Below, in pieces: positions 26,376 to 48,500 of a DNA stretch of 64,000 bases. The position numbers were made by a program, and so were the translations under genes. Location: the IMG/VR virus record IMGVR_UViG_3300047553_000334, positions 1,875-65,874 of that record. The stretch is one strand, 5' to 3'. The notes beneath the pieces were generated by a model, which was given only the letters and a program-made list of their open reading frames with translations, made no database searches and was not told the origin of the DNA. Position 1 is the first letter of the stretch, and every line of letters starts with the position of its first letter. This DNA comes from a virus (lineage: Duplodnaviria; Caudoviricetes).

Positions 26376-26405
26376 AAAAGACCACGGATTATTATCCGTG
26401 GTCTT
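26376..26405 (-). terminator. Intrinsic terminator-like hairpin
   Basis: Perfect 12-bp stem AAGACCACGGAT/ATCCGTGGTCTT, ending in a U-run on the minus strand, downstream of the Gam-like gene. Confidence 0.6.
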
Positions 26406-26459
26406 CCATTTGGTTGTTGTTGGCTTCTGTGTTGATATGGTTTCAGAAGCACTGCAATC

Positions 26460-27615: not shown

Positions 27616-28282
27616 TCTCTTCTCCAAACAATTCTTCTTTTGCTTCATCACTAAGTGATGTAATAACAGACTTGCTAGTTGACGATGCCATCAACATGTC
27701 ATAGATAGTCTCGTTGTTAATACCGTATCTGTACTTATTACTTAGTACCCCAAGAGGCAGTGCTCCAAACATTGTGTAGTTATCTTTAGGTGAAAACATA
27801 TCAACAACTTCATTGTGGTTACTGCCGATGATCGCACATATTTGTCCGTCAATATTGATAGTCTTGCAGTCTAGGTCATGCTTTGCATATTTTTGTGGAT
27901 CTAACAAGACTGTAATCATGGTTGTCTCGTTAGGATATATGTGGTTGCCGTTAGCTGCGTATATGTTTGACGGTACGTAGTTATCACATCCGTACACATA
28001 CATCGTTGTGCCGTTGTAACTAAGTGCTCTGAACTCATCTAGTACTGATTTCCATGTCATGATTTTTGGTTCGCGATTATTATTTGTAAAGTAATCAGGA
28101 TCGTCGTTTACCTCTAGAAATATCTTGTCGCCGATGCGTGATGCAAACCACGACACCGTGTTGTCTTCTTCTGTATATGAAACATATGTTGTCTCGTACC
28201 ATTTCTTTGGTATGTAAACATCCATTTGCTCTGGGTCTACAGGAAACAGGTAGCTCTTACGCCTACCGTTGTCTGAACTCAT
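27608..28282 (-). CDS. Hypothetical protein
   Basis: 224-aa ORF with GAGGAG RBS, overlapping both neighbours. Confidence 0.7.
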   Translation of the reverse strand: MSSDNGRRKSYLFPVDPEQMDVYIPKKWYETTYVSYTEEDNTVSWFASRIGDKIFLEVNDDPDYFTNNNREPKIMTWKSVLDEFRALSYNGTTMYVYGCDNYVPSNIYAANGNHIYPNETTMITVLLDPQKYAKHDLDCKTINIDGQICAIIGSNHNEVVDMFSPKDNYTMFGALPLGVLSNKYRYGINNETIYDMLMASSTSKSVITSLSDEAKEELFGEENV

Positions 28283-28694
28283 TATTAATAAACTCCTCTA
28301 TCTTTTTAATTGTTTGTTCGTTACCAATCACTAGTTCCACGGTGTGTATTTCATTGAGAACTTCATCTAATGATCTACACACACGTGTTACTTGCATATC
28401 TGAATAAATCTGTTGTTTTGTTTGCACTTTCCCTTTCTCTGTTTTCAATTCGATGCCAACACCAATAGGTATTTTCCACTTGGTATTGTGTACGTATAAG
28501 TCTGGTAGACCTATTGTGTTTCCTTGCCATCCTGTTGCGTAATGACGAGTACGACATGATGGACATGTAACTTTAGTTCTGGCTTTACCAGACTCAAATA
28601 CTGTGTAACCTAGCAGTTGCAACGATTGGACAACCAACTGTTGCAACTGCTTTTCTGTCATCGATTGAAGTAATATGCTGCTGCGATTAACCAT
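28263..28694 (-). CDS. VRR-NUC / PD-(D/E)xK endonuclease (resolvase-like)
   Basis: TEKQLQ..., GLPDL, GIELKTEKGKVQTKQ, RSLDEV; CPSC insert. Start probably ATG 28661. Confidence 0.8.
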   Translation of the reverse strand: MVNRSSILLQSMTEKQLQQLVVQSLQLLGYTVFESGKARTKVTCPSCRTRHYATGWQGNTIGLPDLYVHNTKWKIPIGVGIELKTEKGKVQTKQQIYSDMQVTRVCRSLDEVLNEIHTVELVIGNEQTIKKIEEFINNEFRQR

Positions 28695-28721
28695 AACAAT
28701 GCAAGTATAGGTGTGATGCAG

Positions 28722-29288
28722 CTATCTTGCAGTTTCTTCTTGTCGTCGTCGTTCATGTTGTAACTTTAAGAACTTCCAGCAAGTTACGACATGCGTTAGT
28801 GGTATTGATGTTGAGTTAATAGAATTGAGATACTTCATGGCAATTCTTGCTGATGATGCAGTCGGTGCTTGAAGTACCAATTTTAATATCTCAGGTGTAG
28901 ATAGTATGTAATTTAAAGTTTGCTTTTCTCCTTGTGTTAATGCGTCATGCATAAACTCAGCATGACGTTCGTAATGATCAGGTTTGTGATTTGATTTTGT
29001 GTAATCAATTACAGTCACTAGCTTGTTATCTTTATAGACGTATCGTGCTAGTAATGCTGAGTACCAGCAACCGTTTAGTAATGAGATGATGTGCCTACGT
29101 GACCACGTTGGCCATTGGTTTGGTGGAAATATAGACTTCATCTCAACAACATCATTACGAGATGCACCAGACACAAATAGCTCTAGTATTAATATTGCTG
29201 TGTATTTGTTTGATACGTGCACACCAACGTTATTGATGTGCACGTAATAAGCCACTGGCGCAATGTATTTCTTGCGATGTGATGCCAT
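28722..29288 (-). CDS. Hypothetical protein
   Basis: 188-aa ORF, start coupled to the upstream stop (TAATG). Confidence 0.6.
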   Translation of the reverse strand: MASHRKKYIAPVAYYVHINNVGVHVSNKYTAILILELFVSGASRNDVVEMKSIFPPNQWPTWSRRHIISLLNGCWYSALLARYVYKDNKLVTVIDYTKSNHKPDHYERHAEFMHDALTQGEKQTLNYILSTPEILKLVLQAPTASSARIAMKYLNSINSTSIPLTHVVTCWKFLKLQHERRRQEETAR

Positions 29289-29698
29289 TAGAATCTAGGC
29301 TTGTATTTACCAGATAACCGTGCCATGCAGTGACCACACTTCCAAGGTGGTGTCCACTCACCACTGAGGAATGCGTCTACAATATCAACAACCTTACCTT
29401 TTGGGTATTGGCTCCAATCCTTGTCATTTGCGTTCTTAAATGTCTTCCATACAAAATCTTCTTCAATGTCGTAGATATTATCTAATGCTTCTAAGTTCAC
29501 AGCGTATTCCTCCATAGAGGGTAGCTTTATGAAATCATTGGGATCTACTTTGAATGAAATAATCTTTAACTTCCATGATGGCCACGACAGCGTTACTATA
29601 TTTGCGTTTGTAACTGTTACTTCTAGCTTTGACCAACCAGCTTGATACTCACTGGTGACAGCCATCATCCTGATGATTTTCTCGATATCGCCTAACAT
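29288..29698 (-). CDS. Hypothetical protein
   Basis: 136 aa, AAGGAG RBS, C-terminal CGHC. Confidence 0.7.
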   Translation of the reverse strand: MLGDIEKIIRMMAVTSEYQAGWSKLEVTVTNANIVTLSWPSWKLKIISFKVDPNDFIKLPSMEEYAVNLEALDNIYDIEEDFVWKTFKNANDKDWSQYPKGKVVDIVDAFLSGEWTPPWKCGHCMARLSGKYKPRF

Positions 29699-29712
29699 AA
29701 TTCTCCTTGTGT

Positions 29713-29754
29713 AAAAAGTTTGTGGAGCCTGAAATGCGTTTTAGGCTCCACAAA
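29713..29754 (-). terminator. Terminator-like hairpin
   Basis: TTTGTGGAGCCT.../...AGGCTCCACAAA inverted repeat followed by CTTTTT on the minus strand. Confidence 0.6.
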
Positions 29755-29773
29755 AGCATGCAAAATACTGTGT

Positions 29774-29790
29774 ATAGTATACCGTAGGTA
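29774..29790 (-). promoter_or_regulatory. Phage promoter/operator motif TACCTACGGTATA overlapping a TATACT -10 box
   Basis: 13-mer identical to 41935..41947; upstream of the replication operon. Confidence 0.55.
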
Positions 29791-29792
29791 AT

Positions 29793-30290
29793 CTACTCAC
29801 AAGTACATTTGTGTTCCCAGTTCTCGCACTGAACACACGTTTCAGCACCCATAAGATGAAGGTCATCATCTTCTAGGTCATCATCTGATCGTTGCTTGTG
29901 GCTGTATCCTTTTGGACCTGCGTAGATATCACCAGCAAACATCATGCCGGGTTCAGCGTAACGGCAGTAAAACTCAAGATCAGGGAACATGTCTGACATA
30001 GTCTGTAGCCATATGTCAGCCGGACCCCACGCTGTATCAAAGCCAATAACAATGTGACCTTCTTTGAAGTCTAGGTAGCATGTGTCACAAGCTCCCCACT
30101 TAGTACCCCAGTTATTATATTGCCATTCGACATTGCCATAGCCATTCTCATCTAACGGTTCTGGCACAGACTTATTAAAGTCTAGTACTGACATGCTTGT
30201 CTCATAATGTGTAGTGTGCAACTCAGCCCAAGCAGACACTTTGTCTGCTGGGCCAGTGATTGTCAATTCATTCATACACCAATTAGGCAT
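29793..30290 (-). CDS. DUF1281 / YubB ferredoxin-like domain protein
   Basis: MPNWCMNEL, LDFNKSVPEP, NNWGTKW, FDTAWGP, YAEPGMMFAG motifs. Confidence 0.8.
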   Translation of the reverse strand: MPNWCMNELTITGPADKVSAWAELHTTHYETSMSVLDFNKSVPEPLDENGYGNVEWQYNNWGTKWGACDTCYLDFKEGHIVIGFDTAWGPADIWLQTMSDMFPDLEFYCRYAEPGMMFAGDIYAGPKGYSHKQRSDDDLEDDDLHLMGAETCVQCENWEHKCTCE

Positions 30291-30301
30291 TGTGTTATTC
30301 C

Positions 30302-30637
30302 CTATCCGTAAACTAGTTCACCAAAACATATCTCTTGTAACATTGTGTCAATGACATCTTGATCTACTTGTTGCTCTTCTTCAAACGAGCGATCTCCAAT
30401 TAACCATGCTTTTTGCAACCATGTCAGCACGTCAAGAGAAGATATTGTATGCACCTCCTCTTCTTCATCATGAATATCTATATGGAACAATGTTTTTGGA
30501 TCATCAAAACCAATCCAGCTGGCATGCCATTTAACAACCCATTCACAGTGCCGGATACCTTCAGTGATTTGGTCATACCAAAACTCTCGATTAATATCAC
30601 CTACTACCCACTTAATATGTGTGTCACTTGCTTGCAT
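30302..30637 (-). CDS. Hypothetical protein
   Basis: 111 aa, AGGAG RBS; ends DTMLQEICFGELVYG, a recurrent phage early-gene motif. Confidence 0.7.
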   Translation of the reverse strand: MQASDTHIKWVVGDINREFWYDQITEGIRHCEWVVKWHASWIGFDDPKTLFHIDIHDEEEEVHTISSLDVLTWLQKAWLIGDRSFEEEQQVDQDVIDTMLQEICFGELVYG

Positions 30638-30932
30638 TTTTTAACTCCTGTAATGTATTCCAAATCCTGTCCCAATTTGTGCCAAAGTTAGCGTCAAATC
30701 CTTCGTGTAGTTCATTGACTACGTCAGGCCATTTATCTATGTGTTTGATTATCTGACGGACAATCTCATTGTATGAAGGCAAATGGTCTTTTGCTTCACC
30801 AACTACAAAATCCCATGGCCCCCATACTTCAATGTAAAACTCCGGGTATTTCTCCCGGAGTTCACGCAGCTCTGTTTCAAACGCATTATCGCGTTTTGTC
30901 CATTCTTCTTCTGTCATTAATCTTCTCCCCAT
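30624..30932 (-). CDS. Hypothetical protein
   Basis: 102-aa acidic ORF in a tightly overlapped operon. Confidence 0.65.
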   Translation of the reverse strand: MGRRLMTEEEWTKRDNAFETELRELREKYPEFYIEVWGPWDFVVGEAKDHLPSYNEIVRQIIKHIDKWPDVVNELHEGFDANFGTNWDRIWNTLQELKNASK

Positions 30933-31339
30933 CCATCTGGTTGCAGTAGTGAGCCATCATCATACAAGTCTTGACCGCTGTACATATCTGTCCATTCACT
31001 GTATGTACAGTCATAGATGTACTCAAACATAGCGTCATTGAACTCGTCGATGTTTCGCTCATGATACGTAGATGCAACAAGTGCACAGAACTTCTCGATC
31101 TCATCACTTGTTGGTCTGTCAATGTTTAATTGCTCGACAGCTTTGTCAATGAACTTGATGACGCTTCTGTCGTCATACACGACGCTGACATCCGTAAACA
31201 ACATTTTGCCCACACGTGACATCAACTCTACACCAATGCACGGGGAGAGAAACTCCCCGTCTTCTGTGTAGTGCTGATCACGTGCATAATCGTAGTGGTC
31301 AGTTGACCATTCTTCGTACTCACATACTGAATAAAACAT
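30917..31339 (-). CDS. Hypothetical acidic protein
   Basis: 140 aa, D/E/Y-rich, GAGG RBS. Confidence 0.65.
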   Translation of the reverse strand: MFYSVCEYEEWSTDHYDYARDQHYTEDGEFLSPCIGVELMSRVGKMLFTDVSVVYDDRSVIKFIDKAVEQLNIDRPTSDEIEKFCALVASTYHERNIDEFNDAMFEYIYDCTYSEWTDMYSGQDLYDDGSLLQPDGWGED

Positions 31340-31372
31340 ATTGTGTTACCTCGTGTTTATTTGTTTGTTTAA

Positions 31373-32266
31373 TTAAACCCACGCAGCTGCACTGCCATGG
31401 GCGCGAATGACAACATGACTGTCGCCATCACATTGGAGAGATGCAGGACAACCTACACAGGTTGTATGCATTGGTAGCATATTGCGATACGCTCGCATCT
31501 CATTGATGAACGGGTCGCTTGGGCACTGCTTCATACCCTTGCTGTAGGCTACGTGCCGACGATTGACGTAGTCATGCTCAGGTAGAACTGTAAACGTACC
31601 CCAGCCAGCTTGCTCTGCCTCGTACTGGTCAGTGTAGTTGTCGCATGACGCTTGTAGCACACCCTTGAATGGTTGAGCTAACTGCATGCGCCATTGGTGT
31701 GTGTAGCCACGATGGCCAAGGCTGTAGCGTAGCAGGTCACCCCAGACAGGAAATGGCACGGCTACAGGATCACCATATGAACCAATACGTGTCTCCTTAC
31801 CAGCAACAATTTGTATGGTTGCAGCGACAGTGCTAGACACAACAGGTATGTTGCCGCGTTGGAATGACTCCCAGATTGCAGTGACACCCTTGCCAATATT
31901 GACGTAGCACGTACGCACAAGCTTGACTTTGCCATTGACAATGTGCCTCTTCCAACCCTTGCGATGTACACATTTGCCACAGATGCAGTCGTCAATCATA
32001 AAGTCAATGGCGTGTTGAGGATGGATATCACGCATGATGATATAAGTCTGCAACATGTCACCAGTCTTGATGTTGTAATCCTCTGGGTTGTACTGGCAGT
32101 TGGACATCACAGCAATGATAGGGTGGCGTCGATCAAGTTGTGATGGCCCATTGTAGAAGCAGTACGAGTTGTACTTCGGCTTCATATGCTTGCCGTTAGT
32201 TACGTTGGTGAAAAGGGCTGGATTTGCATCTAGCCCAAACTTGTTGAGATATTCTTTAGCTGTCAT
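31373..32266 (-). CDS. Conserved Cys-rich phage enzyme-like protein (possible Fe-S / radical-SAM-like fold)
   Basis: GPSQLD, KTGDMLQTYI, ICGKCVHR, CYVN, RIGSYGDP, GYTHQW, ASCD, QCP, CVGC..C motifs. Confidence 0.6.
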   Translation of the reverse strand: MTAKEYLNKFGLDANPALFTNVTNGKHMKPKYNSYCFYNGPSQLDRRHPIIAVMSNCQYNPEDYNIKTGDMLQTYIIMRDIHPQHAIDFMIDDCICGKCVHRKGWKRHIVNGKVKLVRTCYVNIGKGVTAIWESFQRGNIPVVSSTVAATIQIVAGKETRIGSYGDPVAVPFPVWGDLLRYSLGHRGYTHQWRMQLAQPFKGVLQASCDNYTDQYEAEQAGWGTFTVLPEHDYVNRRHVAYSKGMKQCPSDPFINEMRAYRNMLPMHTTCVGCPASLQCDGDSHVVIRAHGSAAAWV

Positions 32267-32643
32267 TTTGTTACTCCATCATTCCAAAACCAATATTTAC
32301 TGTATTTGTTGTCGTCTTTCTCAATAATCTCACATATGTAATGCGCCTCCTCTTCACTGATACCATCCCAGCCAATGTTTACACCGACGGTGCTAAGGTC
32401 ATCGCATTCGCCTTCACACTTCTTGCCTACACAGTCAAGTGCAAAACCACACTCAATACGGAATGTCCACGTGTAGTGTGGATCGACCTCATCAAGCACG
32501 TCAATGCTGTACGTACGATGTGCATTAACAGGACAGTCTTTCCACTCACTGTTATGCCATTGCAACTCCCATATGGTTGCTGCAGTTTTCATAATCATCT
32601 CAGCAGCTGCATGGTAATACTCTTCTTTGTATCGCTTATTCAT
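32263..32643 (-). CDS. Hypothetical protein
   Basis: 126-aa ORF overlapping both neighbours. Confidence 0.6.
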   Translation of the reverse strand: MNKRYKEEYYHAAAEMIMKTAATIWELQWHNSEWKDCPVNAHRTYSIDVLDEVDPHYTWTFRIECGFALDCVGKKCEGECDDLSTVGVNIGWDGISEEEAHYICEIIEKDDNKYSKYWFWNDGVTK

Positions 32644-33052
32644 AATGACTCTTTGTTGTTACTTGGTTTTCGCCCGGCATCGATTCTATTGTCATGTAGT
32701 ATGTTGATGGTCCGTCATATCCGTCATCACTAACGTCTTCACCACGCCGATCAGCGCGTTCCATGTGACGCAGACAATCTTCGCCATCAGCTATTTTTGC
32801 TTCGTTATTTAATTGCTCACAACGTTCCTGTAGTTTTTTCATTAGCATTTCTGCTGCCTCACGAGACGAGCATTTGCAATACTCTTTTAGTATGTGTAGA
32901 TAACCCCACCATCCTCCTTCCTCTGGTCCACCGTAGTAAGATTCGCATTGATAAATAGAAAGGTAGCACTCTTGTGCTACCTCGCGGTCCTCTATAATTT
33001 CATTCCATGCTTGCAGGAATATGTTGTCATCACTCATAACGATCCTCCTCAT
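32636..33052 (-). CDS. Conserved phage hypothetical protein (YGGPEEGGWW motif)
   Basis: ESYYGGPEEGGWW motif that I recognise from phage early proteins. Confidence 0.7.
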   Translation of the reverse strand: MRRIVMSDDNIFLQAWNEIIEDREVAQECYLSIYQCESYYGGPEEGGWWGYLHILKEYCKCSSREAAEMLMKKLQERCEQLNNEAKIADGEDCLRHMERADRRGEDVSDDGYDGPSTYYMTIESMPGENQVTTKSHYE

Positions 33053-33413
33053 TTGATTTTTTGTATATTGCTTTTCCGTACTTTACTGGCATGACTCGTT
33101 CACCATGGCATTTGTAACAAGCCACGTCGTACACGCCCTCAAAGTAGTCCTCTTCGTAACCACCGTAATACATATCTTCAGCTGTTAGACCATCGCAATC
33201 AACAGAAGGATTAACGTGATGGCCTTTACCATCACATGTATCGCAGGCTTCATATTTGAATTTGTACCAAACTTGTTTATTGGTCTTACTGTCATACTTG
33301 TGCCTCACTAGCATCTTGCGTTCATCAATATCAATCCACCAACGATCACGACCACCGCGTACACGGTGGTCGTTTTGATAGTTGCGGTCTTCCAAGCTAA
33401 ACCATTCACTCAT
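33030..33413 (-). CDS. Zn-finger (CxxCxGxG) phage protein
   Basis: CDTCDGKG...VNPSVD...YDVACYKCHG; GGAG RBS. Confidence 0.7.
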   Translation of the reverse strand: MSEWFSLEDRNYQNDHRVRGGRDRWWIDIDERKMLVRHKYDSKTNKQVWYKFKYEACDTCDGKGHHVNPSVDCDGLTAEDMYYGGYEEDYFEGVYDVACYKCHGERVMPVKYGKAIYKKSNEEDRYE

Positions 33414-33708
33414 ATTGTTTCTTCAGCTCCTTGTATGTTTTACCTGTGTTCTCAAATGCAAGTGAGCAGAACACAATCTCTTGATGGCGTTCGCTATACA
33501 TGCGGTGATTACTACCATCGTAGTAGTACTCAACACCACGACGTAGTCCTACACAGCCAAGCTCTTCTGCACATGCACGGCGTAGTTTGATTGGGCTAGG
33601 AGGTGTACGATACACCTCATAGCGTTCTCCTTGTTTGTTGTTTGGTGTGTTGTCCCACATGCAACCCCACACCTCAAACTTATACACAACAGGGTTTTCT
33701 GCTTTCAT
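33406..33708 (-). CDS. Hypothetical protein
   Basis: 100 aa, GAGGAG RBS. Confidence 0.65.
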   Translation of the reverse strand: MKAENPVVYKFEVWGCMWDNTPNNKQGERYEVYRTPPSPIKLRRACAEELGCVGLRRGVEYYYDGSNHRMYSERHQEIVFCSLAFENTGKTYKELKKQYE

Positions 33709-33947
33709 TTTGTCTCCTCAATTATTGTGATGGTCACAACGTCATCTTCCCACTCGATGAACGAGTCATCACATTCAAGGCAATACTTAGCTCGCTTGTC
33801 GTTGTTGACCCAAGCTTTGAGTATGCCAAGAAAGTACTTCTTGTCTTTCTTGGACGCACCGCTCATGCGGTAATAGTGACGTGCCCAGCGCAACATGCCG
33901 GGAGCGTTGAACATTGGGACTGATACTAAAGCGATTCTTGTTTTCAT
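33705..33947 (-). CDS. Hypothetical protein
   Basis: Likely start ATG 33947 (ATGA overlap with the upstream stop). Confidence 0.55.
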   Translation of the reverse strand: MKTRIALVSVPMFNAPGMLRWARHYYRMSGASKKDKKYFLGILKAWVNNDKRAKYCLECDDSFIEWEDDVVTITIIEETK

Positions 33948-34183
33948 ATTTTGTTTCCATTCATGTGATGATCGATGAGGGCTTGTTGATAGCCATACAG
34001 CCATGTCATGGCCTCACTAAACCCACAGGCTCTTGCTCCACAGTCGGCTGTAAAGTAATCACCGTACATACCTTTTGGTGCAAACTTGTAGCGTGTAACG
34101 CCATCGCCTGGGCTGTATGTAAATACGTCTAGGTTGCAGTGTTTAAGCACTGCATTCATGTGTTCTTTATCTCGCTTTGTCAT
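33944..34183 (-). CDS. Hypothetical protein (TYSPGDGVTRY motif)
   Basis: 79 aa, GAGG RBS, recurrent phage early-gene motif. Confidence 0.65.
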   Translation of the reverse strand: MTKRDKEHMNAVLKHCNLDVFTYSPGDGVTRYKFAPKGMYGDYFTADCGARACGFSEAMTWLYGYQQALIDHHMNGNKI

Positions 34184-34447
34184 TTAAATACCTCTTAGTG
34201 TTCTTGCTTCTGCGCTTGTAACAACTCGTACAATTGAGTCGATTACATCTTGTGGGCAGTCTCCTTCTTCAAGGACTGCCATGACAGCTTCCATAGCTGC
34301 CTCAAGGATTTCTTCCTGTGTATAGTCTTCCTCTGGGTCAAAGTAATCCCAAAGGCTCACGTCTGGTAAGTCATTGGTTGTTAATCCAATGTGGTCAATC
34401 ATAAGCTGATCGACGACAGCGCGGAATGTTTGAAGAGTGTATTTCAT
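34184..34447 (-). CDS. Hypothetical acidic protein
   Basis: 87 aa, DLPDVSLWDYFD; AAGGA RBS preceded by a pseudoknot motif. Confidence 0.7.
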   Translation of the reverse strand: MKYTLQTFRAVVDQLMIDHIGLTTNDLPDVSLWDYFDPEEDYTQEEILEAAMEAVMAVLEEGDCPQDVIDSIVRVVTSAEARTLRGI

Positions 34448-34467
34448 TTGTTTGTCCTTTGTTTGGT

Positions 34468-34498
34468 TGTGCGTTGTTGGTGAGACGCACCCCTCACA
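34468..34498 (-). ncRNA. Leader H-type pseudoknot motif, copy 1
   Basis: GUGAG-GGGUGCGU-CUCAC-CAACA-ACGCAC: 5-bp stem whose loop GUGCGU pairs with downstream ACGCAC. Confidence 0.65.
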
Positions 34499-34504
34499 TT
34501 GTCA

Positions 34505-34990
34505 CTAGGCGAGTTCGACTAGGTCGCTGTTGTCACGTGCAGTCGATGCCACACACTTATCGAACTGTGGCATTGAAGTAGCGACGTACTTCCAGAAGTC
34601 GAACGGAACCGCAGGAAGCTCAATGTCTTTGATGATTACATTGAACGCCTTGATAGCCTCCTGAATTTGGTCATCAAGTGTCTCAGATGTAGTCTTGACA
34701 GTGAACGTACGCAGCTTTCTACTGGATGGATCAGTGCGTTGGTTCTCGTCTTCGTACATATTCAGTGATACATCGATCTTGGCTACGACTCGGTCAAGCA
34801 ATGCCAAGTCTCGTGTTGCCACATCAATACGGAGATGAAAATTGAGGGCAACGCGATGACCATTGATGTTGAACTCTTTGTCATGGTGTGTTGTCTCATA
34901 ATAATCGTATGTATTGCCGATGCCTCCGCTAATACGGCGAATGTCATCAGAGAGACGAGAGACGAAATAGTCAAACGTAGGTGTAGACAT
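34505..34990 (-). CDS. Hypothetical protein
   Basis: 161 aa, preceded by pseudoknot motif copy 2. Confidence 0.7.
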   Translation of the reverse strand: MSTPTFDYFVSRLSDDIRRISGGIGNTYDYYETTHHDKEFNINGHRVALNFHLRIDVATRDLALLDRVVAKIDVSLNMYEDENQRTDPSSRKLRTFTVKTTSETLDDQIQEAIKAFNVIIKDIELPAVPFDFWKYVATSMPQFDKCVASTARDNSDLVELA

Positions 34991-35009
34991 AGTTGTTATG
35001 TTCTCTTTC

Positions 35010-35040
35010 TATGCGTTGTTAGTGAGACGCATCCCTCACA
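35010..35040 (-). ncRNA. Leader H-type pseudoknot motif, copy 2
   Basis: GUGAG-GGAUGCGU-CUCAC-UAACA-ACGCAU: compensatory G-C to A-U change in stem 2 relative to copy 1. Confidence 0.65.
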
Positions 35041-35047
35041 TAAAACA

Positions 35048-35302
35048 TTAGATAGCGATGTAGCAGTTTTTGATTTCTTTGATGCCAGCTTCTTTGATGA
35101 TGTGATTACGTACATCAGCAACTTGCGATTCGTCTAGATATTGAATAGCCTCGCCAAGCCAAAGCAAGACATAGTTGTTCTCATTACGTAGGTCATCAAA
35201 AACTTTTGTCAATCTGTCGTATTGACCTTGCGTTATTAGATTGTTATTAAATAGTGACTCAATAAGTATCTCGCCACTAATAACTTCAAACGGCATTTTC
35301 AT
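35048..35302 (-). CDS. Hypothetical protein
   Basis: 84 aa, ATGA overlap. Confidence 0.6.
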   Translation of the reverse strand: MKMPFEVISGEILIESLFNNNLITQGQYDRLTKVFDDLRNENNYVLLWLGEAIQYLDESQVADVRNHIIKEAGIKEIKNCYIAI

Positions 35303-35571
35303 TTGATTAGATTCTCTTTCTTTTTTGTTTGTGTTGGTTGTCCAGTTTTGTTATCAAACCAGACAAGCATGTACGGCTCATCAATGTATGTGCCAATTTT
35401 TCTACGTGTTATTCGTACGTGCATTACAGGTGTGGTCTCTTGCTGGATGATAACTCTATATCGAGACCAAGTCTTAGCCCATGCTGCAGTTCTCCAAACA
35501 ATAGGAGGGCCGAATTCTCGGCCCTCAAAGTCATAACATTGACAAAGGTAACTATATGGATAGTTAGCCAT
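35299..35571 (-). CDS. Hypothetical protein
   Basis: 90 aa, GAGGT RBS. Confidence 0.6.
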   Translation of the reverse strand: MANYPYSYLCQCYDFEGREFGPPIVWRTAAWAKTWSRYRVIIQQETTPVMHVRITRRKIGTYIDEPYMLVWFDNKTGQPTQTKKKENLIK

Positions 35572-35887
35572 TACTTGTATCTACCTCATCCCAACCTTTA
35601 GGGTTGACTGGTATTTCCTGTAGTGTTGCCATCCACTTATCAAACGCAAGCAGTTCTTCGTGTGTTGGCTCATCGTTAATCCAGTCATCAAAGCCCATGA
35701 CATTGCGCGTGTCATGTGGGACATGCGCATCTGCAAAGTCAAGGATCTCTGCAAGAAACATGCGAGCTTGCCCGTCAAGAAACTGTTGAAACTGCGGAAC
35801 TAACTTGATGAGTCGCTCAATGCCTCCACCCGGATGAATGTGAAGGTATGCAAATCTCAAGATGAGGATTTTGTAGTGTTTAGTCAT
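35564..35887 (-). CDS. Hypothetical protein
   Basis: 107 aa, GGAG RBS, ATGA overlap. Confidence 0.65.
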   Translation of the reverse strand: MTKHYKILILRFAYLHIHPGGGIERLIKLVPQFQQFLDGQARMFLAEILDFADAHVPHDTRNVMGFDDWINDEPTHEELLAFDKWMATLQEIPVNPKGWDEVDTSNG

Positions 35888-36255
35888 TTGTTATCGTTCT
35901 CCATTTCTTTCTGCATAAATGTGATGAATTGTGTTGCCCACAACCGGAGTGCTTCTGCGTTAGACTCAAACGTCCATTGCTCATGGATATTTGCTGCAGC
36001 AAGTCTAATTTGTCCATATGCGTTGTCAACAAGGTCAACATCAACACGGACTGTCACGTCTTGATATGGCCTTTCTCGATACAACTCAATGGTCATGGTC
36101 TGAGTCAGTTTTGTTGTACGACTAATTCTGGTGAAACTGTGTATGCCTCCACGCACTGTCATGTCAGTGAATGGATCAGTTGATTTACCTCTTAGCAATT
36201 CATACAGAGATGAAGCTACTTCTTGTGGGGACTCGTAACGATTATTCAGATTCAT
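35884..36255 (-). CDS. Hypothetical protein
   Basis: Likely start ATG 36255 after AAAGGA. Confidence 0.6.
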   Translation of the reverse strand: MNLNNRYESPQEVASSLYELLRGKSTDPFTDMTVRGGIHSFTRISRTTKLTQTMTIELYRERPYQDVTVRVDVDLVDNAYGQIRLAAANIHEQWTFESNAEALRLWATQFITFMQKEMENDNK

Positions 36256-36358
36256 TGTCAATCCTTTGTTGATACTCAGTAACTGAGTGAAAGAACCATC
36301 CAATCAAAAATAGAATGGATAGCAATGCGATGAGAGTGCAAATGATTATTGCAATCAT
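36242..36358 (-). CDS. Small single-TM membrane peptide (38 aa; not in ORF track)
   Basis: MIAIIICTLIALLSILFLIGWFFHSVTEYQQRIDNESE*; GAGGA RBS; overlaps the next gene. Confidence 0.65.
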   Translation of the reverse strand: MIAIIICTLIALLSILFLIGWFFHSVTEYQQRIDNESE

Positions 36359-36406
36359 GATTCGTTCCTCAATAATAACGTTCTAATTATTATTGTTCAA
36401 TGTAAT

Positions 36407-36474
36407 GAGGGGTACAATTTTTATACCCCTCTAGGGTACAAAATTTGAGGGGGCTAAATTTTATACCCCCTCAA
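36407..36474. repeat. Cluster of related palindromes GAGGGG(TA)-N9-12-(TA)CCCCTC
   Basis: Two full palindromes (36407-36431, 36445-36474) with a half copy AGGGTACAAAATTT between them, next to an AT-rich tract. Confidence 0.65.
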
Positions 36475-36477
36475 TTT

Positions 36478-36816
36478 TTATGCCATGTTTCGCACTCGAT
36501 TGATGATGTTGAGTGCCCGGCAGAGGACAACTTCCTCGCTTGGTGTGACCTTCACCTTGTCGAGTACACGCCTCCACAGGCGGTTGCGCCAGCGTGTGCT
36601 ATTGGTGTACGTGCTGTAGGTAGCAGGTCGTACGTCGATGAGATCCGCCAATACCTTGACTGGTAGTGCGTCCTCAAGAAGCATCATGCACATTTCCTCT
36701 TTGGGAGAAACTTGCACGTCCTCAATGAGTCCTGCTTCACGCAGGGCGTTGAACTGCTCGTACTTGATACCAGCAGCTCGTAAAGCGTCAATTTGTTCTT
36801 GTGTGAATGGTTTCAT
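36478..36816 (-). CDS. Hypothetical protein
   Basis: 112 aa, AGGAG RBS. Confidence 0.7.
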   Translation of the reverse strand: MKPFTQEQIDALRAAGIKYEQFNALREAGLIEDVQVSPKEEMCMMLLEDALPVKVLADLIDVRPATYSTYTNSTRWRNRLWRRVLDKVKVTPSEEVVLCRALNIINRVRNMA

Positions 36817-37040
36817 AGTTCACTCCTAAGTTTGTTTACCAACATACCAACGGGATTCTGCATTTTCTCAGCAGCGTGTGCCCCAAATCTGAGGATATCC
36901 TCATCATTGAGGTTGTTAAACCCAGACATAGCTTCGTTTACGTAGTCCTCTTGGGAGTATTGTGCCCAGAGGAGAATGTCTGTGTCATACATCCACAGTA
37001 CGTACGTCTTTATCGCGTCTAACGCTTGCTCTCTTGTCAT
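36813..37040 (-). CDS. Hypothetical protein
   Basis: 75 aa, ATGA overlaps. Confidence 0.65.
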   Translation of the reverse strand: MTREQALDAIKTYVLWMYDTDILLWAQYSQEDYVNEAMSGFNNLNDEDILRFGAHAAEKMQNPVGMLVNKLRSEL

Positions 37041-37246
37041 TTGATACCTAACCTTTTGTTTTTGCGTGTCTCACGATCGTCGTGAAACGTCTCGACGAGA
37101 AGTGTGTCAAGCTCCTCAACAAGTTGTCTAAGATGATTCTCCGGCGCTGGAAAAGTCACCCCATGTAATCGATATGTTTTATGCATAGCGCTTGAGACCT
37201 CAGCGATCTTGGCTTGCAGCTCATTGATTCTTTGTTGATTTTTCAT
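37037..37246 (-). CDS. Hypothetical coiled-coil protein (69 aa)
   Basis: Start re-assigned to ATG 37246, because the longer ORF-track version runs through a hammerhead ribozyme and the upstream gene. Confidence 0.6.
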   Translation of the reverse strand: MKNQQRINELQAKIAEVSSAMHKTYRLHGVTFPAPENHLRQLVEELDTLLVETFHDDRETRKNKRLGIK

Positions 37247-37260
37247 GGTTTGTATCCATA

Positions 37261-37326
37261 TGACCTGACTCATCAGTGCAAGGCGGTCAACTCTTACAGA
37301 CTTCTCCGCATGGGAGAAGTTTCGTC
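37261..37326 (-). ncRNA. Hammerhead ribozyme, type II (HH-D)
   Basis: GAC-GAAA-CUUCUCC[CAUGC]GGAGAAG-UC^UGUAAG[AGUUGACCGC]CUUGCA-CUGAUGA-GUC-A-GGUCA. Full core; loop I UGACC pairs with 3' GGUCA. Predicted cut 37299/37298. Confidence 0.88.
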
Positions 37327-37779
37327 TTACAAGAGTCCGGTTGCTTCCATACTCTTGAACACCTGCAAGTGGTAGATGCTCCGGTATGTGCCGTACCACA
37401 TGTGGAAGCCACAGTTCTTGATCGTCAACAACACATCCTTCTTGAATGGGAAGTTGTGCTCAGGTTGTACGACCTTAGCCTCCTTGCCAGTATGGGCAAA
37501 GAACATGGCGTTGATTTGCTCTGCCTCATCACGGTCAATGAAGAGGCAAAGCATCTGCTCTTTGCTGTCCTTCTCCATAGTGACAACATACTCACCGTCT
37601 GTTGTCTGGAGAACGTACGGCCACTGGGGGAAGTCAAGCATCTCATTGACATCGATGTTGTTCTCATCGGCATACTCGCGTACGCAAAGATGGAAGTTAG
37701 TCATCTCTTTCTTGACCTCCTTGGCAAGCCAAGCGGTTTCGATACGTTTGATCAGATTAGGTTTCTTGTTTGTTTTCAT
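37327..37779 (-). CDS. Hypothetical protein
   Basis: 150 aa, AGGAG RBS, directly downstream of the Csx16-like gene. Confidence 0.75.
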   Translation of the reverse strand: MKTNKKPNLIKRIETAWLAKEVKKEMTNFHLCVREYADENNIDVNEMLDFPQWPYVLQTTDGEYVVTMEKDSKEQMLCLFIDRDEAEQINAMFFAHTGKEAKVVQPEHNFPFKKDVLLTIKNCGFHMWYGTYRSIYHLQVFKSMEATGLL

Positions 37780-37788
37780 TTGTTTCTC

Positions 37789-38118
37789 CTAGTAGTAATT
37801 GACACCGACTTCGTCGCGGATGTCGTTCCATGCCTCAATAGTCATGACTTTGTAACCAACGAGGCTTGCACCGCACTGATCCATTTGCTCTGGAGTCAGC
37901 TCCTTGCCTCGCAGTTCCAATGGCAGGTTAGGTAAATCCACCGACCACACCTCACGGGCATGGCAGGCGAGGTGCATCGGGATGACACCGATGACCTTGC
38001 GTCCTCGCATCAGGTCAGGTGTTGCGTGGGCAACGACTGTTACATCCGGGCTAACGTGCCCGTGCAGTACTAGCCATTGCACCAAGCCAATATGTCGAGA
38101 GATAACTATTGTTTCCAT
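37789..38118 (-). CDS. csx16: Csx16-like (Cas_VVA1548 family) protein, candidate cyclic-oligoadenylate ring nuclease
   Basis: TIVISRHIGLVQWL...VVAHATP...VIGVIPMHLA...LPLELRGKELTPEQMDQCGASL matches the Csx16 pattern as I recall it (SRH.G..EW; H; VIG.LP.HLA; RG.ELS...GA.L). ATG 38118 after AAGGA. Confidence 0.8.
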   Translation of the reverse strand: METIVISRHIGLVQWLVLHGHVSPDVTVVAHATPDLMRGRKVIGVIPMHLACHAREVWSVDLPNLPLELRGKELTPEQMDQCGASLVGYKVMTIEAWNDIRDEVGVNYY

Positions 38119-38146
38119 AGTTTCTTTGTTTCCTTGTGTTTGAAGT

Positions 38147-38178
38147 ATGCGTTGTTCACCGAGTCGCACCCCTCGGTG
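38147..38178 (-). ncRNA. Leader H-type pseudoknot motif, copy 3 (upstream of csx16-like gene)
   Basis: CACCGAG-GGGUGCGA-CUCGGUG-AACA-ACGCAU: stem 1 covaries relative to copies 1 and 2. Confidence 0.6.
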
Positions 38179-38251
38179 AGTGAGATATGGCCACGTTGGC
38201 ACCACTCACTCGGTCAATGCGGTTACGCCTCTTCGTAACCTGTGATATCTG

Positions 38252-38308
38252 ACGTGTTTCGGCGTGACTGCCTCATCAGCCTATAGGAATCACCCTATAG
38301 GTACACGT
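38252..38308 (-). ncRNA. Hammerhead ribozyme, type III (HH-C)
   Basis: ACGUGUA^CCUAUAGG[GUGAUU]CCUAUAGG-CUGAUGA-GGC[AGUCAC]GCC-GAAA-CACGU. Canonical core; loops I and II are complementary. Predicted cut 38302/38301. Confidence 0.92.
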
Positions 38309-38340
38309 TGGGGTGGCACGTGAGCACCACCCCGTACTAC

Positions 38341-38451
38341 TTAGTGACCGTATCGATGCATCGGAAGCGTTGACAGCATCCAATACATAAGCACTAAGCC
38401 TCCGACGATAATGACGGCAGTGATGCCGTCCGTGATGAACTTCTTCTTCAT
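38341..38451 (-). CDS. Small single-TM membrane peptide (36 aa; not in ORF track)
   Basis: MKKKFITDGITAVIIVGGLVLMYWMLSTLPMHRYGH*; ATGA overlap with 38448..38687. Confidence 0.6.
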   Translation of the reverse strand: MKKKFITDGITAVIIVGGLVLMYWMLSTLPMHRYGH

Positions 38452-38687
38452 CTTCCACCCACCTTTCTTGCAAGGGCTACCACTTCAGGGTCGGTGTCGC
38501 CACCAACCAAGCGAGCAAGCCCCATCATGTGTCCCTCCAGCTCGCGGTAGCTGAAGATGTGCACGTTGACCATCATCTCCCCGCAAGCGGACTTAATGGA
38601 GATGGATGTCTTTGAAACGCTTGTCGGCGTAGAGATGGTGAAGGACCACTTTCGGTTTGCGGTCATGAAGGCGCCATTAAATTCCAT
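38448..38687 (-). CDS. Hypothetical protein
   Basis: 79 aa, AAAGGA RBS immediately after HH-B. Confidence 0.7.
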   Translation of the reverse strand: MEFNGAFMTANRKWSFTISTPTSVSKTSISIKSACGEMMVNVHIFSYRELEGHMMGLARLVGGDTDPEVVALARKVGGR

Positions 38688-38715
38688 GGCTCGTTGTTTC
38701 CTTTGTTTTTTGGTT

Positions 38716-38773
38716 ACGTGTTTCGCCTAGACTGGCCTCGTCAGCTCATTGCCATCACACAATGAGGACACGT
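38716..38773 (-). ncRNA. Hammerhead ribozyme, type III (HH-B)
   Basis: ACGUGUC^CUCAUUG[UGUGAUGG]CAAUGAG-CUGACGA-G-GCC[AGUCUA]GGC-GAAA-CACGU. Predicted cut 38767/38766. Confidence 0.88.
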
Positions 38774-38789
38774 TTAAAAGGGTGGGGGC

Positions 38790-39077
38790 TTACGCCCCCT
38801 TGGTGAAGGTGCAGTTGTCGTACTCGAAACTGCACGGTGTACCGTTCCACTGCCGGGAAATCCAGTACGCCCCTTCGATGTCGATTGGCTTGATGGTGTG
38901 CGAGCGACTTGCGCAAGCAAGCATCTGAAGCAGATATCCGTCTGTCCAGTTAGACATCTGATTCACGAACGTCTTACCGTCTTCGACTACGTATGGACCA
39001 CGCGTAGTGGTCAGCGTCCACGTACATACTACGTACGGTTCACTTGGGGTTGATTGTGTGTGTGTTGCGAATGACAT
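38790..39077 (-). CDS. Hypothetical protein
   Basis: 95 aa, AAAGGA RBS with an A/C-rich leader. Confidence 0.65.
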   Translation of the reverse strand: MSFATHTQSTPSEPYVVCTWTLTTTRGPYVVEDGKTFVNQMSNWTDGYLLQMLACASRSHTIKPIDIEGAYWISRQWNGTPCSFEYDNCTFTKGA

Positions 39078-39105
39078 GGCTCATTATCCTTTATGTGTTT
39101 TTTTG

Positions 39106-39141
39106 AAAAATAAAGCACCCGGTATCGTGTACCGGGTGCTT
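39106..39141 (-). terminator. Intrinsic terminator
   Basis: 12-bp stem AAGCACCCGGTA/TACCGGGTGCTT ending in UUUAUUUUU on the minus strand, just after the stop of 39149..39490. Confidence 0.75.
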
Positions 39142-39148
39142 CCGGGGA

Positions 39149-39490
39149 CTATTCGTCCCCTTCGTCCCCAGCCATGGCTGTCGCCATCGCCGTCTTGGTC
39201 ATCGCCTTCAACGATGCCATGAATGGGTCGATTGGCTTGGCAGCCTTGACTGCCACTTCGAGATTCGCGAGTTGAGTACCGATTCTGTCCAGAACCAAGC
39301 GGTAACTATCGGCATCGGTTTGCCGCTTCCGGAAACCGACCGCATACACCGTCTGAATGGACTGCCAGCCCTTATTGATTGTATCTTCGGTCATTGGCAG
39401 ACCGGTTGCGATGTGACCGGCGATATCGCTTTCAAACTTGCGAATCGCATTCATCGCGGGTTCGAATATCACGGGTTGTTTTGTTGACAT
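39149..39490 (-). CDS. Hypothetical protein (first gene of the minus-strand unit)
   Basis: 113 aa, AAAGGA RBS, GC-rich codons. Confidence 0.75.
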   Translation of the reverse strand: MSTKQPVIFEPAMNAIRKFESDIAGHIATGLPMTEDTINKGWQSIQTVYAVGFRKRQTDADSYRLVLDRIGTQLANLEVAVKAAKPIDPFMASLKAMTKTAMATAMAGDEGDE

Positions 39491-39524
39491 AATAAAGTTT
39501 CCTTTATCGGTATGTTAGATTGTA

Positions 39525-39588
39525 TTGATGTTTCGACATAGGTTTGTCATTATCAAGCGTACCGTTACCAGCGGTAACACGACATCAA
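39525..39588 (-). ncRNA. Hammerhead ribozyme, type III, U3-A8 core variant (HH-A)
   Basis: UUGAUGUC^GUGUUACCG[CUGGUAA]CGGUACGC-UUGAUAA-U-GACA[AACCUA]UGUC-GAAA-CAUCAA. Core C3-G8 replaced by U3-A8. Predicted cut 39581/39580. Confidence 0.75.
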
Positions 39589-39889
39589 GGTTTTGAAGGT
39601 TTCCAGCGGTGGAAACCAGCGGTACCGGACGACCCCGGAGGGCGTCCACACCATGTATGTAGGTCGGTTTTCAGGGCACAGTCACGTCGGGTGGTGGGGT
39701 GGCGGTAGTACCCGGCATGGCAAGGGGGTGGGTCGGTTGCCTCGGCACAGTAGGGACTCCAAACCATATATTCTCAGCTGATCTTTATCTATTTCTCCCA
39801 TCGCAGAAACTCATCTCCCCACGGAGAAAATGATTAGGATCCATATAGATTTGCTACAATCAGCTGGTTTAGATATACTTACGGTATGA

Positions 39890-39961
39890 TCCTACTTAGC
39901 TCAGCGGTAGAGCGTCCGGCTGTTAACCGGATGGTCGCTGGTTCGATCCCAGCAGTAGGAG
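39890..39961 (+). tRNA. tRNA-Asn (GTT)
   Basis: Cloverleaf: acceptor TCCTACT/AGTAGGA, D arm GCTCAGCGGTAGAGC, anticodon arm TCCGG-CTGTTAA-CCGGA, T loop GGTTCGATCC; CCA not encoded. Confidence 0.95.
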
Positions 39962-41958: not shown

Positions 41959-42039
41959 GCCTCGGTGGTGAAACGGTAGACACGACAGACTTAAAATCTG
42001 TTGTCGCAAGACGTACGGGTTCGAGTCCCGTCTGAGGCA
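41959..42039 (+). tRNA. tRNA-Leu (TAA)
   Basis: Acceptor GCCTCGG/CTGAGGC, anticodon arm ACAGA-CTTAAAA-TCTGT, variable arm GTC-GCAA-GAC, T loop GGTTCGAGTCC. Confidence 0.95.
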
Positions 42040-45571: not shown

Positions 45572-48500
45572 ATGGCATCGTTACTGTCTAGTTTAATCAT
45601 GGGGCAACCCGGTCAAGCAACGGATAAAGATAAAGTTAATCAAGGTGCGCAACCACCAGTGCCTCCAACTCCTCCAGCTGGTGGTGCGCCAGGATTACCG
45701 TCTATTCCACCTGTTGCACAGCAGCAACCAACTGGACAGCAACCGCCATCAAATCAGCCATCCGGAGGACCAGTATTTCCTGCTCCTCCGGGTTTTAATC
45801 CAATTCAATTTGACCCTATTGCAAGTATGTCAAAGGTTTTTGGAAACCTTCCACAAGCCACAGGAGGTGCACCGGGATCTGTACTTGGACAAACAAAGGC
45901 TGAAACAGTAACAAAGATTGATCCTAATACATGGGATATGGCAGCCATTCAGCCAAAGGCTGCGCGACTAGATTGGTATTTACGTTCGCAGAAATCTGGA
46001 TCACTTACTAGTGGTGCTGATTTATTAAAAGGTATGCAGTCGTTTCTGCAAAGTGAGGCATCTGGTAAATCACAGACAGCAGGTACAACTCGTGCAGATA
46101 TAACTGGTGATGATCCATTTTTAAAGACAGTTAGTTATGCTACGTCGTTGTACAACAATGGCGGAACCGTTGAGCGTAAGATGGCTGATGCTTATGCTAA
46201 TGGATTGATGTACATGACATCTGCATTAGCACGTAATGATCAGCAAGGTGTTGATGCAGCTAAGTTTTATTTAAGTGACTTAAGCGATTACACAGTAGAA
46301 GATTTCCGAAGTCCTAAAACACAAACGTATTTTGCCAAGCAAGCTGCGTCAGTAGTAAAACCGTACGTATTAAATAAATCATCCGACGAACTTACTAAGA
46401 TGTCGGAAGAAGTTAAACCGGAAGCTGTACGGAAAAAATTACTAGGTAACGTTTTATACGACTACGTACAAAGTCGTTTCACGGATTTACGAACCGAAGC
46501 ACAATCGGGAAGTCCAACTGCAAATGCTGCTCGTAAAACATTAAATACATTTACTAAGATGTATGGTGACTTGGCACGTCCAGCAATCGAAGGGCAGCGT
46601 GACAAACAAGTTGAAATGTTTATGGAGTCACCGCAAGGTCGTGCTCTTATTGACGATGCCTACGATCAATTCGATGGCCAAGGCTTATTTAATACACAAA
46701 AAGCAAAAGACCTTGTTACACGCATGGGTCAGAAAATTAAGTCAACTCAAGGTACTGGTTCTTTTGATCCAGCTAATGACGTTACTCCACAAGAATTAAA
46801 AGATTTCTTTGGTCAAACAAAAATGAAGCGCTATATATCTAGCGCAATTGACATTGATCCAAATATTAGTGATGAGGCATTACGTCGGTTTGAATTAGAC
46901 CCGTCAAATGTAGATGACGATGAAATGTATGGTGCACTGACACCATCCGGTGTTGCTGCACTTTATGGCAAGAAGGACGACTCTCTTGTTGGAGACGTAG
47001 GTCGTGCTGGGCGTCCAGACCCATATATGTATGATCTATCGTCTAACTTCTCGGCTAATCAAACACAAGCACCATCTACATTGTCTGGTGGTAATACAGG
47101 GCGTATTAGGTCACGTGCTGAGCTTGCAGGTGCAATGGCATCTGGATTAGGTTTAAGTGAAGCACAGTTAGAGCAAGCAGCCCGTAAGTTATTCTCTAAT
47201 ACAGACGATATTTCTGAGTTTGTAAATGCGGGTATGAATGATTACGACATTGAGTCGGATATTCTGCCAAAGGTACAGACCGACATTAAGTCGTCCCGCA
47301 TTTCGCAAACAGGTGGCATAAAAACAGCTGGTACATCCACGGGTACATATAACTTACTTACTGATACGTTTAAAGCCGTAGATGAAGTCATGCCGGGTGG
47401 ACCACAGCAATCATCATGGTTAAACAAAAAACGCGCCCTTAACGATATTGCTGTGCAGGCTCGTAATCTTGAAGGCACTGCTGTATCTGCTGCTGGTTCT
47501 AGGTTTGCTAAGACTGCTACCGGTGAACCAGATTACTTTAATCCAATATTGCCTGACCGTGGTGATCAGGTAGGACGCATACAAATCCTGCAAGATATTT
47601 TTAAACATGCAAGTGAGAATTCCAAGTACCGAACTGATTTACAAAATCTTATTCGCAGTGCAATAGATGGCAGGCCATACACAGGCGACATTAAGATGAC
47701 TCCATCGCAGTTGTCTTCCGTTGTTAGTATTTATGCAAAGCACCTAGAAGAAGCTGCGTCAGCAAATCCAACAGCAGCTGGAAGCCCAAACCAGTTATTT
47801 AATTCCATGTTTGGCATCCTGCCATCCGACTATAACAAACGCGATTTGCGCATGAAGATTTTGAAGTCATTGCAATCAGCAAGTCCTTCTAAGTTTAAAA
47901 CAATGTCGAGCACAATGGAAGTTGAACCCAGTGGAAACACTAGGTTAATACCAGTTGCTAATGCTGGACAGGTTATGGAAAATGCGTCTAGCATTCCGGG
48001 AGACACTGGAGCAAAAGGTGGACGTAGTAGTAAAACTGAGAATGCTGCACTAAACAGAGTTGAACGTAGTCAGCAAATTTTAGGCGATATTTTTAAAACT
48101 GCTAAAGATTCTATTCTTTCGTATACCAATGATATTGGTTTAGGTGAATCAATTGGTGCAACAACTGCTCCATCAAAATTTAAGGATGGCGTAGTCGCAG
48201 CGTTTGATAAAGCTATTGGTGATTCTTTAGCTAAGTACAAAATTGACCCAAATGATAAACCAAAGTTTGACCGCATGGTCGAAAAAATTAAAGAGCAGTT
48301 AGTTGATCAGGCATCTACTGAATGGATGAAGGGTACTGTAACTGGTCAAGAAGTCGACAATATATTTAAACAATTTGGACAAGTCCAAAGATCCATTGGC
48401 GCAACGGGTATGTCTGATGCTGCAGCACCAGCAGTAGGACGAAATGTGCCTACTAGAGATGATGCTAATGCAGCTAAAGTAACTGAGGGTCGTAAGATTT

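Follow-up and report, generated by a model that had tools for sequence, protein, structure and literature searches.

Csx16, present in 68 type III CRISPR loci, is a ring nuclease that in its CRISPR-associated form fully degrades cyclic tetra-adenylate (cA4), and not cA3 or cA6, in ethylenediaminetetraacetic acid (EDTA) buffer; the enzyme tested stayed cA4-specific even at a tenfold higher enzyme amount (Hoikkala et al. 2025, PMC12409355). In a figure legend of that study, a 2',3'-cyclic phosphate is marked on some of the standards and products. At high enzyme concentration the related Csx20 cleaves cA3 as well, and among 28,114 phage genomes (Millard database) AcrIII-1 was counted in 36, Csx20 in 4 and Csx16 in 2 (PMC12409355). 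Later papers list eight extrinsic ring-nuclease families and treat viral AcrIII-1, viral AcrIII-2 (SAVED) and the phage- or plasmid-borne Crn4b, which acts on cA3 and cA4, as likely anti-CRISPRs. Here, we describe a Csx16-like gene (37789..38118, minus strand), encoding the 109-residue protein P0001, in a 64,000-nucleotide stretch of viral DNA (Duplodnaviria; Caudoviricetes), hereafter the window, which spans bases 1875-65874 of the 65,874-base IMG/VR record IMGVR_UViG_3300047553_000334 (G000; 100% complete by CheckV). As a Csx16 homologue in a phage without a CRISPR locus, it is best read as a candidate ring-nuclease anti-CRISPR.

P0001 resembles CRISPR-associated Csx16 in matching it over its full length, in size, in the shared motifs (S/T-R-H, H, G-x-L/I-P-x-H-L-A and R-G-x-E-L-T/S) and in being predicted to dimerize, as in the published AlphaFold 3 model (PMC12409355). 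It differs in its setting, a phage with neither Cas10 nor an array, in sequence (29-40% identity to the cellular Csx16 proteins of a Pseudomonadota sample; below the NCBIfam cut-off), in lacking their short insert after the central motif and in falling on the other side of a tree branch from them. The gene has no type III CRISPR-Cas locus around it or next to it, as expected of a viral copy. The phage-encoded Csx16 proteins already described (2 of 28,114; Drs3) are likewise stand-alone homologues in virus genomes, and tblastn of P0001 against a phage collection found only Methanobacterium virus Drs3, filed twice, whose protein is 34% identical and annotated "putative CRISPR-associated protein". 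Drs3 is an archaeal virus, whereas the bearer here is bacteriophage-like and its sequence occurs in freshwater and soil runs.

With AcrIII-1/Crn2 (DUF1874), P0001 shares its proposed job, that of a small, dimeric, metal-independent cA4 nuclease of viruses, but it has no DUF1874 profile match at E ≤ 1, and structural scores against that family lie in the range where merely a shared arrangement may be meant. Csx20, AcrIII-2 (viral SAVED) and Crn4b are comparable as ring nucleases on mobile elements that are read as anti-CRISPRs. A first-pass annotation, made from the sequence alone, had proposed a second family of viral anti-type III ring nuclease, different from AcrIII-1/DUF1874. Its candidate ring-nuclease anti-CRISPR stands as the best-supported reading, but the family is not the second, since Csx16, Csx20, AcrIII-2 and Crn4b have already been reported in phages or plasmids. 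According to a review, Csx16 and DUF1874 are in part similar in sequence, and the two may not be wholly different families. The idea of phage-borne Csx16 is therefore already in print, and the gene described here is a further member of a known family.

Family membership and predicted structure of P0001

The open reading frame (ORF) runs on the minus strand from an ATG at 38118 to a TAG at 37791..37789, the stop codon being counted in the gene coordinates. This ATG, rather than the upstream GTG at 38205, is taken as the right start because homologues share an M-x-T-I-V-(I/V)-(S/T)-R-H N-terminus. In Pfam, P0001 matched PF09652 (Cas_VVA1548) over model positions 2-90 of 91 (E = 3.4e-17; 62.8 bits against a cut-off of 25) and no other family at E ≤ 1, hence not DUF1874; a whole-genome search of the virus record gave 62.6 bits for PF09652. 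Four PADLOC Csx16 models matched as well (best E = 6.2e-18), and P0001 also aligned with the Csx16 end of the PADLOC CARF-HEPN-Csx16 fusion model (E = 2e-8), which links the domain with ancillary effectors of type III systems. PHROGs held no family for P0001. A HMMER search over 1.84 billion representatives recovered 1,328 relatives at E ≤ 1e-3, 304 of them at E ≤ 1e-10.

Conservation was assessed in a 64-sequence alignment comprising P0001, five relatives from a word search (P0002-P0006) and 58 representatives picked by hand from 150 listed, with most long or multidomain representatives left out. Seven residues were invariant (R8, H9, G44, P47, L50, R70 and G71), and P0001 keeps all seven. 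Its motifs are S7-R8-H9, H31, V42-I-G-V-I-P-M-H-L-A51 and R70-G-K-E-L-T75, and the family motifs also occur in 18 ORFs recovered from a sample of Pseudomonadota genomes, 12 of them from loci with a nearby Cas10 or Cas10-like match. P0002, from another assembly, differs from P0001 at 4 of 109 residues, each time by a similar residue. That P0001 belongs to the Csx16 family is nearly certain: the four-part pattern read in the first-pass annotation (SRH, H, VIG.IP.HLA and RG.ELT) is present in full and is the family's own, and the full-length PF09652 and PADLOC Csx16 matches confirm the assignment.

An ankyrin-repeat reading was also considered, as the family profile matched designed ankyrin repeat proteins (DARPins) in PDB at up to E = 2.3e-8, all through a short G-x-x-P-L-H-L-A-A motif that recurs along the DARPin; it was ruled out, P0001 being a single alpha/beta domain with a full-length Csx16 match. 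Several relatives bear additions to the domain. Zinc-ribbon-like extra CxxC...CxxC stretches stand at the N or C end of P0003 and of five viral ORFs (L005, L015, L031, L033 and L059), and long extensions of unassigned kind are found on the Csx16-like ORFs of L015, L034, L048 and L055-L057.

An AlphaFold2 model of P0001 with the family alignment as input was confident (predicted local distance difference test [pLDDT], 95.2; predicted template modeling score, 0.83) and shows five strands alternating with helices in a beta/alpha fold. The homodimer was predicted as symmetric, with an interaction prediction score from aligned errors (ipSAE) of 0.66 against 0.05 for the best control; among proteins of solved structure, 20 of 30 pairs of one chain and 1 of 23 single chains attained that mark. 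Contact agreement among the dimer runs was at least 88% and partner pLDDT at least 85. The predicted interface (residues 47-52, 56-61 and 87-104) takes in the conserved P47-A51 stretch. A phmmer search of P0001 against PDB sequences gave no hits and hence no Csx16 structure by sequence, so the dimer result is unlikely to be a memory of a solved relative. Foldseek returned nothing at E ≤ 1e-3 for the model against PDB or BFVD; its Rossmann-like arrangement is widespread and gave many weak structural matches. P0001 is thus predicted to be a small homodimer, the outcome that the first-pass annotation had proposed checking by structure prediction.

Viral and cellular relatives

No Cas10/Csm1 match was found over the full 65,874-base record and no CRISPR-like array in the window, in line with the earlier observation that cas genes and arrays are lacking nearby. 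A narrow pattern search of IMG/VR, with patterns from P0001-like sequences and a 12-sequence alignment, identified 68 viral loci encoding relatives of P0001 at 30-53% identity. Of these records, 16 are at least 90% complete (17 counting G000), and 13 have direct terminal repeats. The Csm1/Cas10 search matched none of the 69 virus records (the 68 and G000, in batches of 50 and 19), with a positive control in which 6 of 14 control genomes gave a match.

Among cells, 401 Pseudomonadota genomes were sampled, and 19 of them scored above the PF09652 cut-off (81-140 bits). In 12 of the 19, a Cas10 or Cas10-like match lay on the same contig at a distance of 2-13 kb (7 over the family cut-off and 5 weaker); of the remaining seven, six had a Cas10-type match on another contig of a fragmented assembly and one had none. 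The P0001-like patterns also recovered nine cellular loci. The five most distant from P0001 (30-34% identity) have a Cas10 or Cas10-like ORF 2-7 kb away, whereas the four closest (37-49%) have none nearby. One of those four, a contig of a metagenome-assembled genome (L070), carries a Ro60/TROVE-vWA gene (6156..7772) directly upstream of its Csx16-like gene, with DnaB helicase and TnpB genes nearby, and is probably phage or other mobile DNA. In two Sphaerotilaceae genomes (L074, 9995..11719; L075, 5919..7643), a 574-residue fused protein beside Cas10 begins with the Csx16 domain, and in genome G055 a second Csx16 gene lies 2.5 kb away.

The main tree (95 rows, 94 columns, quick search) was built after dropping L030, which has no start codon within the locus, and L084, whose ORF runs off the contig end. 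One branch, with Shimodaira-Hasegawa-like approximate likelihood ratio test (SH-aLRT) support of 74, separates all 23 Cas10-linked or sampled Pseudomonadota sequences, joined by viral L058, from the 67 other viral rows, the window included, and four cellular rows. A smaller tree gave an SH-aLRT of 98 for five Cas10-adjacent rows plus L058. The viral sequences also lack a 4-to-5-residue RGARY-like stretch that the cellular ones bear after G-x-L-P-x-H-L-A. Branch support in the main tree is modest, its viral loci were collected with P0001-like patterns and its Cas10-linked sequences come from one phylum, Pseudomonadota, and the two-sided split may be partly a sampling effect. Viral Csx16-type genes appear much commoner, and more distinct from CRISPR-linked ones, than the cultured-phage survey implied.

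Related phages and variants

Three viral contigs (L002, L006 and L009) are syntenic with the leftward gene block of the window, and all three such contigs found carry the Csx16-like gene; in L009, the one checked for position, it lies about 2 kb from a tRNA-Asn gene, as in the window. Proteins encoded beside it in L002 are 89-99% identical to those of the window, whereas the Csx16-like protein is 49% identical, and the proteins of the three sisters group together in the smaller tree, apart from P0001. Because the syntenic sisters keep the gene and its product diverges among near-identical neighbours, the gene appears to have been kept while its allele was exchanged. Retention amid near-identical flanks combined with divergence is a pattern typical of counter-defence genes.

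The gene is also kept in variants of about 96-100% identity from three other studies: a contig of run X3 is identical over 37547-38162, and runs X4 and X5 show 65 differences in 1,589 bases and 45 in 1,447 bases, respectively. A further run, X10, contains several variants; its shorter pieces, about 88-95% identical, span the gene in part. In X3 and X5 some bins of the stretch have no depth. The four runs are labelled as metagenomes: freshwater sediment, freshwater, soil and aquatic. No RNA run was listed for the stretch, which speaks neither for nor against expression.

Proposed function and alternative explanations

We propose, with a probability of about 0.6, that P0001 cleaves cA4 and so disarms type III CRISPR signalling, acting as an anti-CRISPR. 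On this proposal, a type III CRISPR complex of the host would recognise phage RNA and its Cas10 would make cA4. The phage dimer would bind cA4 in a pocket lined by conserved arginines and histidines (R8, H9, H31 and R70) and cut it, without metal, to linear products, and cA4-dependent effectors (Csx1/Csm6, Can1/Can2, Cam1 and similar) would hence never be activated. The basis computed here consists of family membership, invariant residues, a confident fold, a predicted dimer, the absence of a CRISPR locus and the presence of the gene in related and unrelated phages. The substrate cA4, catalysis and the anti-CRISPR effect are proposed for P0001.

Several observations weigh against this proposal. 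The stricter NCBIfam model TIGR02620 scores P0001 at 35.9 bits, under its curated cut-off of 46.35, and by that standard P0001 is a divergent Csx16 member in sequence. Its identity to cellular Csx16 of the Pseudomonadota sample is only 29-40%, and the viral sequences stand across a branch from the cellular ones, so substrate or activity could have shifted. The sister candidate Csx15 binds cA4 well but cleaves it very slowly, so family likeness alone is no proof of turnover. A literature search on Csx16 as ring nuclease or anti-CRISPR found no experimental test of a viral Csx16. The portal protein of the virus is at most 25% identical to that of any cultured phage and so points to no host, and a cA4-signalling type III system in the host is presumed.

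A shift of substrate would make P0001 a ring nuclease or phosphodiesterase for cA3, cA6, a cyclic oligonucleotide-based antiphage signalling system (CBASS) nucleotide or another cyclic nucleotide, countering a defence besides or instead of cA4-based type III immunity. The tree position of the viral sequences, apart from the Cas10-linked ones, and their missing RGARY-like stretch fit such a shift, as do the cA3 cleavage by Csx20 at high enzyme and the dual cA3 and cA4 activity of Crn4b. Yet the invariant residues are the same in viral and Cas10-linked members and the one Csx16 tested keeps to cA4 at tenfold enzyme (PMC12409355), and we consider another substrate unlikely. P0001 might instead bind cA4, scarcely cleave it and soak up the signal. 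Csx15, predicted alongside Csx16 as a ring nuclease, soaks up cA4 well and is a very slow nuclease, and phages are known to carry sponges for other cyclic nucleotides (work cited in PMC12409355 and in the Csx15 paper). Against sponging, P0001 has the conserved arginine and histidine set of active Csx16 enzymes intact, and the Csx15 authors argue that the type III signal is too abundant for sponging to pay and state that Csx15 was not found in phages; a sponge is thus decidedly unlikely.

A role outside host defence, for example as a nucleotide-binding regulator of phage or host metabolism, or the status of a functionless passenger gene, would accord with a common fold that has many weak matches and with a context that gives no help, as none of the ten neighbouring ORFs has a Pfam or PHROG family. 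It is very unlikely given that the gene is retained in all three syntenic sister contigs found despite allele replacement and in variants from three other studies, that relatives occur on 68 other viral contigs, that every family-invariant residue is present and that cA4 cleavage is the only activity demonstrated for the family. The cA4-directed anti-CRISPR function remains the preferred reading of P0001.

Genome neighbourhood

Among the products of the virus record are a portal protein, a large terminase and a DnaB-like helicase. The virus lacks a close relative among cultured phages: a megablast search with 4 kb of the window found no match in the phage collection, and the portal protein is distant, as given above. 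The helicase gene lies with many small ORFs in a leftward minus-strand block (23240..39490), which diverges from a plus-strand block starting with a tRNA-Asn gene at 39890; the label "early" for the leftward block is our inference from its content. The Csx16-like gene is the fifth ORF of this block, about 1.4 kb from its start, in a count that takes in a 36-codon ORF (38341..38451). It is followed by a 150-residue ORF (37327..37779, minus strand) that starts 9 nucleotides past the Csx16-like stop and has no Pfam or PHROG match; none of the 68 viral loci encodes a relative. A terminator-like hairpin of 13 pairs and a T run (39112..39142, minus strand), a pattern match from a consensus scan, follows the first gene of the leftward unit. 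The earlier suggestion that the Csx16-like gene is expressed immediately on entry is not supported, and this hairpin, a strong one, stands upstream of the gene.

Other features of the window are recorded here. The 36-codon ORF on the minus strand (38341..38451) encodes a hydrophobic, probably membrane-spanning peptide, and its start overlaps the stop of a 79-residue ORF (ATGA). A GC-richer non-coding stretch of 390 bases (39500..39890) with several inverted repeats separates the divergent units beside tRNA-Asn (39890..39961), and a second tRNA, Leu-UAA, lies at 41959..42039. Two giant plus-strand ORFs of 4,254 and 2,126 residues (9696..22460 and 45572..51952) and ORFs of 1,209 and 587 residues have no Pfam or PHROG match.

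Hammerhead-like ribozymes around the Csx16-like gene

Hammerhead ribozymes are common in phage-like sequence. Three hammerhead-like elements lie on the minus strand around the Csx16-like gene, all intergenic and each with the core (CUGANGA, GAAA and a cleavage triplet) and three stems. Hammerhead C (37259..37327, type II) matched Rfam RF02276 over model positions 1-66 of 66 at 37.5 bits against a gathering threshold of 37 (E = 4.7e-5 over 6 kb), a match that needed permissive filters, was missed in the default gathering run and was recovered once more; cleavage is inferred after GUC, between 37299 and 37298. Hammerhead-like A (38716..38773, type III topology, core CUGACGA ... CGAAAC) was found by core pattern, scores 25 bits in the Rfam hammerhead clan (threshold 37), folds as a three-way junction at minimum free energy and would be cleaved after GUC, between 38767 and 38766. 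Hammerhead-like B (38252..38308, type III topology, core CUGAUGA ... CGAAAC) was found by manual reading of the sequence and scores 16 bits against Rfam Hammerhead_3 (threshold 48.5); stems I and II are present in its minimum free energy fold, and cleavage would follow GUA, between 38302 and 38301. Aligned with each other, A and B have the same cores and similar loops, and both arms of stem I have changed between them with pairing preserved; the two are paralogues with compensating stem I changes.

Compared with known type II (RF02276) and type III (RF00008) hammerheads, the window copies are alike in the CUGANGA and GAAA cores and in the three stems, and C reaches the Rfam threshold; they differ in that A and B score below theirs and in that three successive copies are interspersed with short phage genes. 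Between B and C lie the Csx16-like gene and the 150-residue ORF, and hammerhead cleavage would, from this arrangement, free them as a two-gene RNA. A, B and C in a row would split the leftward transcript into two-gene pieces. The 5' leader between B and the start codon (38119..38251, minus strand) contains a Shine-Dalgarno-like stretch, AAGGAAA, about 13 nucleotides before the ATG. The first-pass annotation had placed the gene on a ribozyme-bounded segment with a pseudoknot leader. Three hammerhead-like sites do flank the gene, with C at the Rfam threshold but A and B below it; the pseudoknot was not borne out, as a 138-nucleotide leader folded into three plain hairpins with no pseudoknot and a non-significant z-score (-1.45).

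Hammerheads were rejected as a general companion of viral Csx16 genes, since just 2 of 50 viral records score above the RF02276 cut-off. In one of the two, the unrelated viral contig L033, a Hammerhead_II match of 47 bits (3613..3666) lies within about 50 nucleotides downstream of the Csx16-like gene (3222..3611) on the same strand. The sister phages L002, L006 and L009 showed no hammerhead at E ≤ 1 or by core pattern, the sole core-pattern match in L009 falling in coding-like sequence. Core-pattern matches in other viral loci are candidates only. In run X10, one contig joins 37792 to 38252, skipping 459 bases that are exactly the Csx16-like gene and its leader, and a join of 38336 to 38728 skips the 391-base segment between A and B; the short sides of these joins measure only 30 and 62 letters at a likeness threshold of 85, and they weakly hint at an exchange or loss of ribozyme-bounded segments as cassettes.

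A joint reading of these results is possible but doubtful as a whole. Csx16 types would be chiefly a viral counter-defence family, forming a large and diverse clade of phage ring nucleases (at least 68 viral contigs in a narrow search) that stands apart from CRISPR-linked Csx16, may have a common origin with AcrIII-1/DUF1874 and is swapped between otherwise near-identical phages. In this phage the gene would sit on a ribozyme-delimited two-gene RNA module, with hammerhead repeats that may serve as cassette break points.

Significance

If the hammerheads cleave, they would show how a phage breaks the polycistronic transcript of its leftward (replication-side) unit down into short pieces. A 109-residue and probably metal-independent cA4 nuclease would, if active, be a handy off-switch for type III based tools. 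The two Csx16 genes of the cultured-phage survey (PMC12409355) compare with 68 uncultivated viral contigs here, and cultured collections may badly under-report the family. If active, P0001 and its many viral relatives would place Csx16-type enzymes beside AcrIII-1 as a means that phages commonly use against type III CRISPR systems with cA4 signalling.

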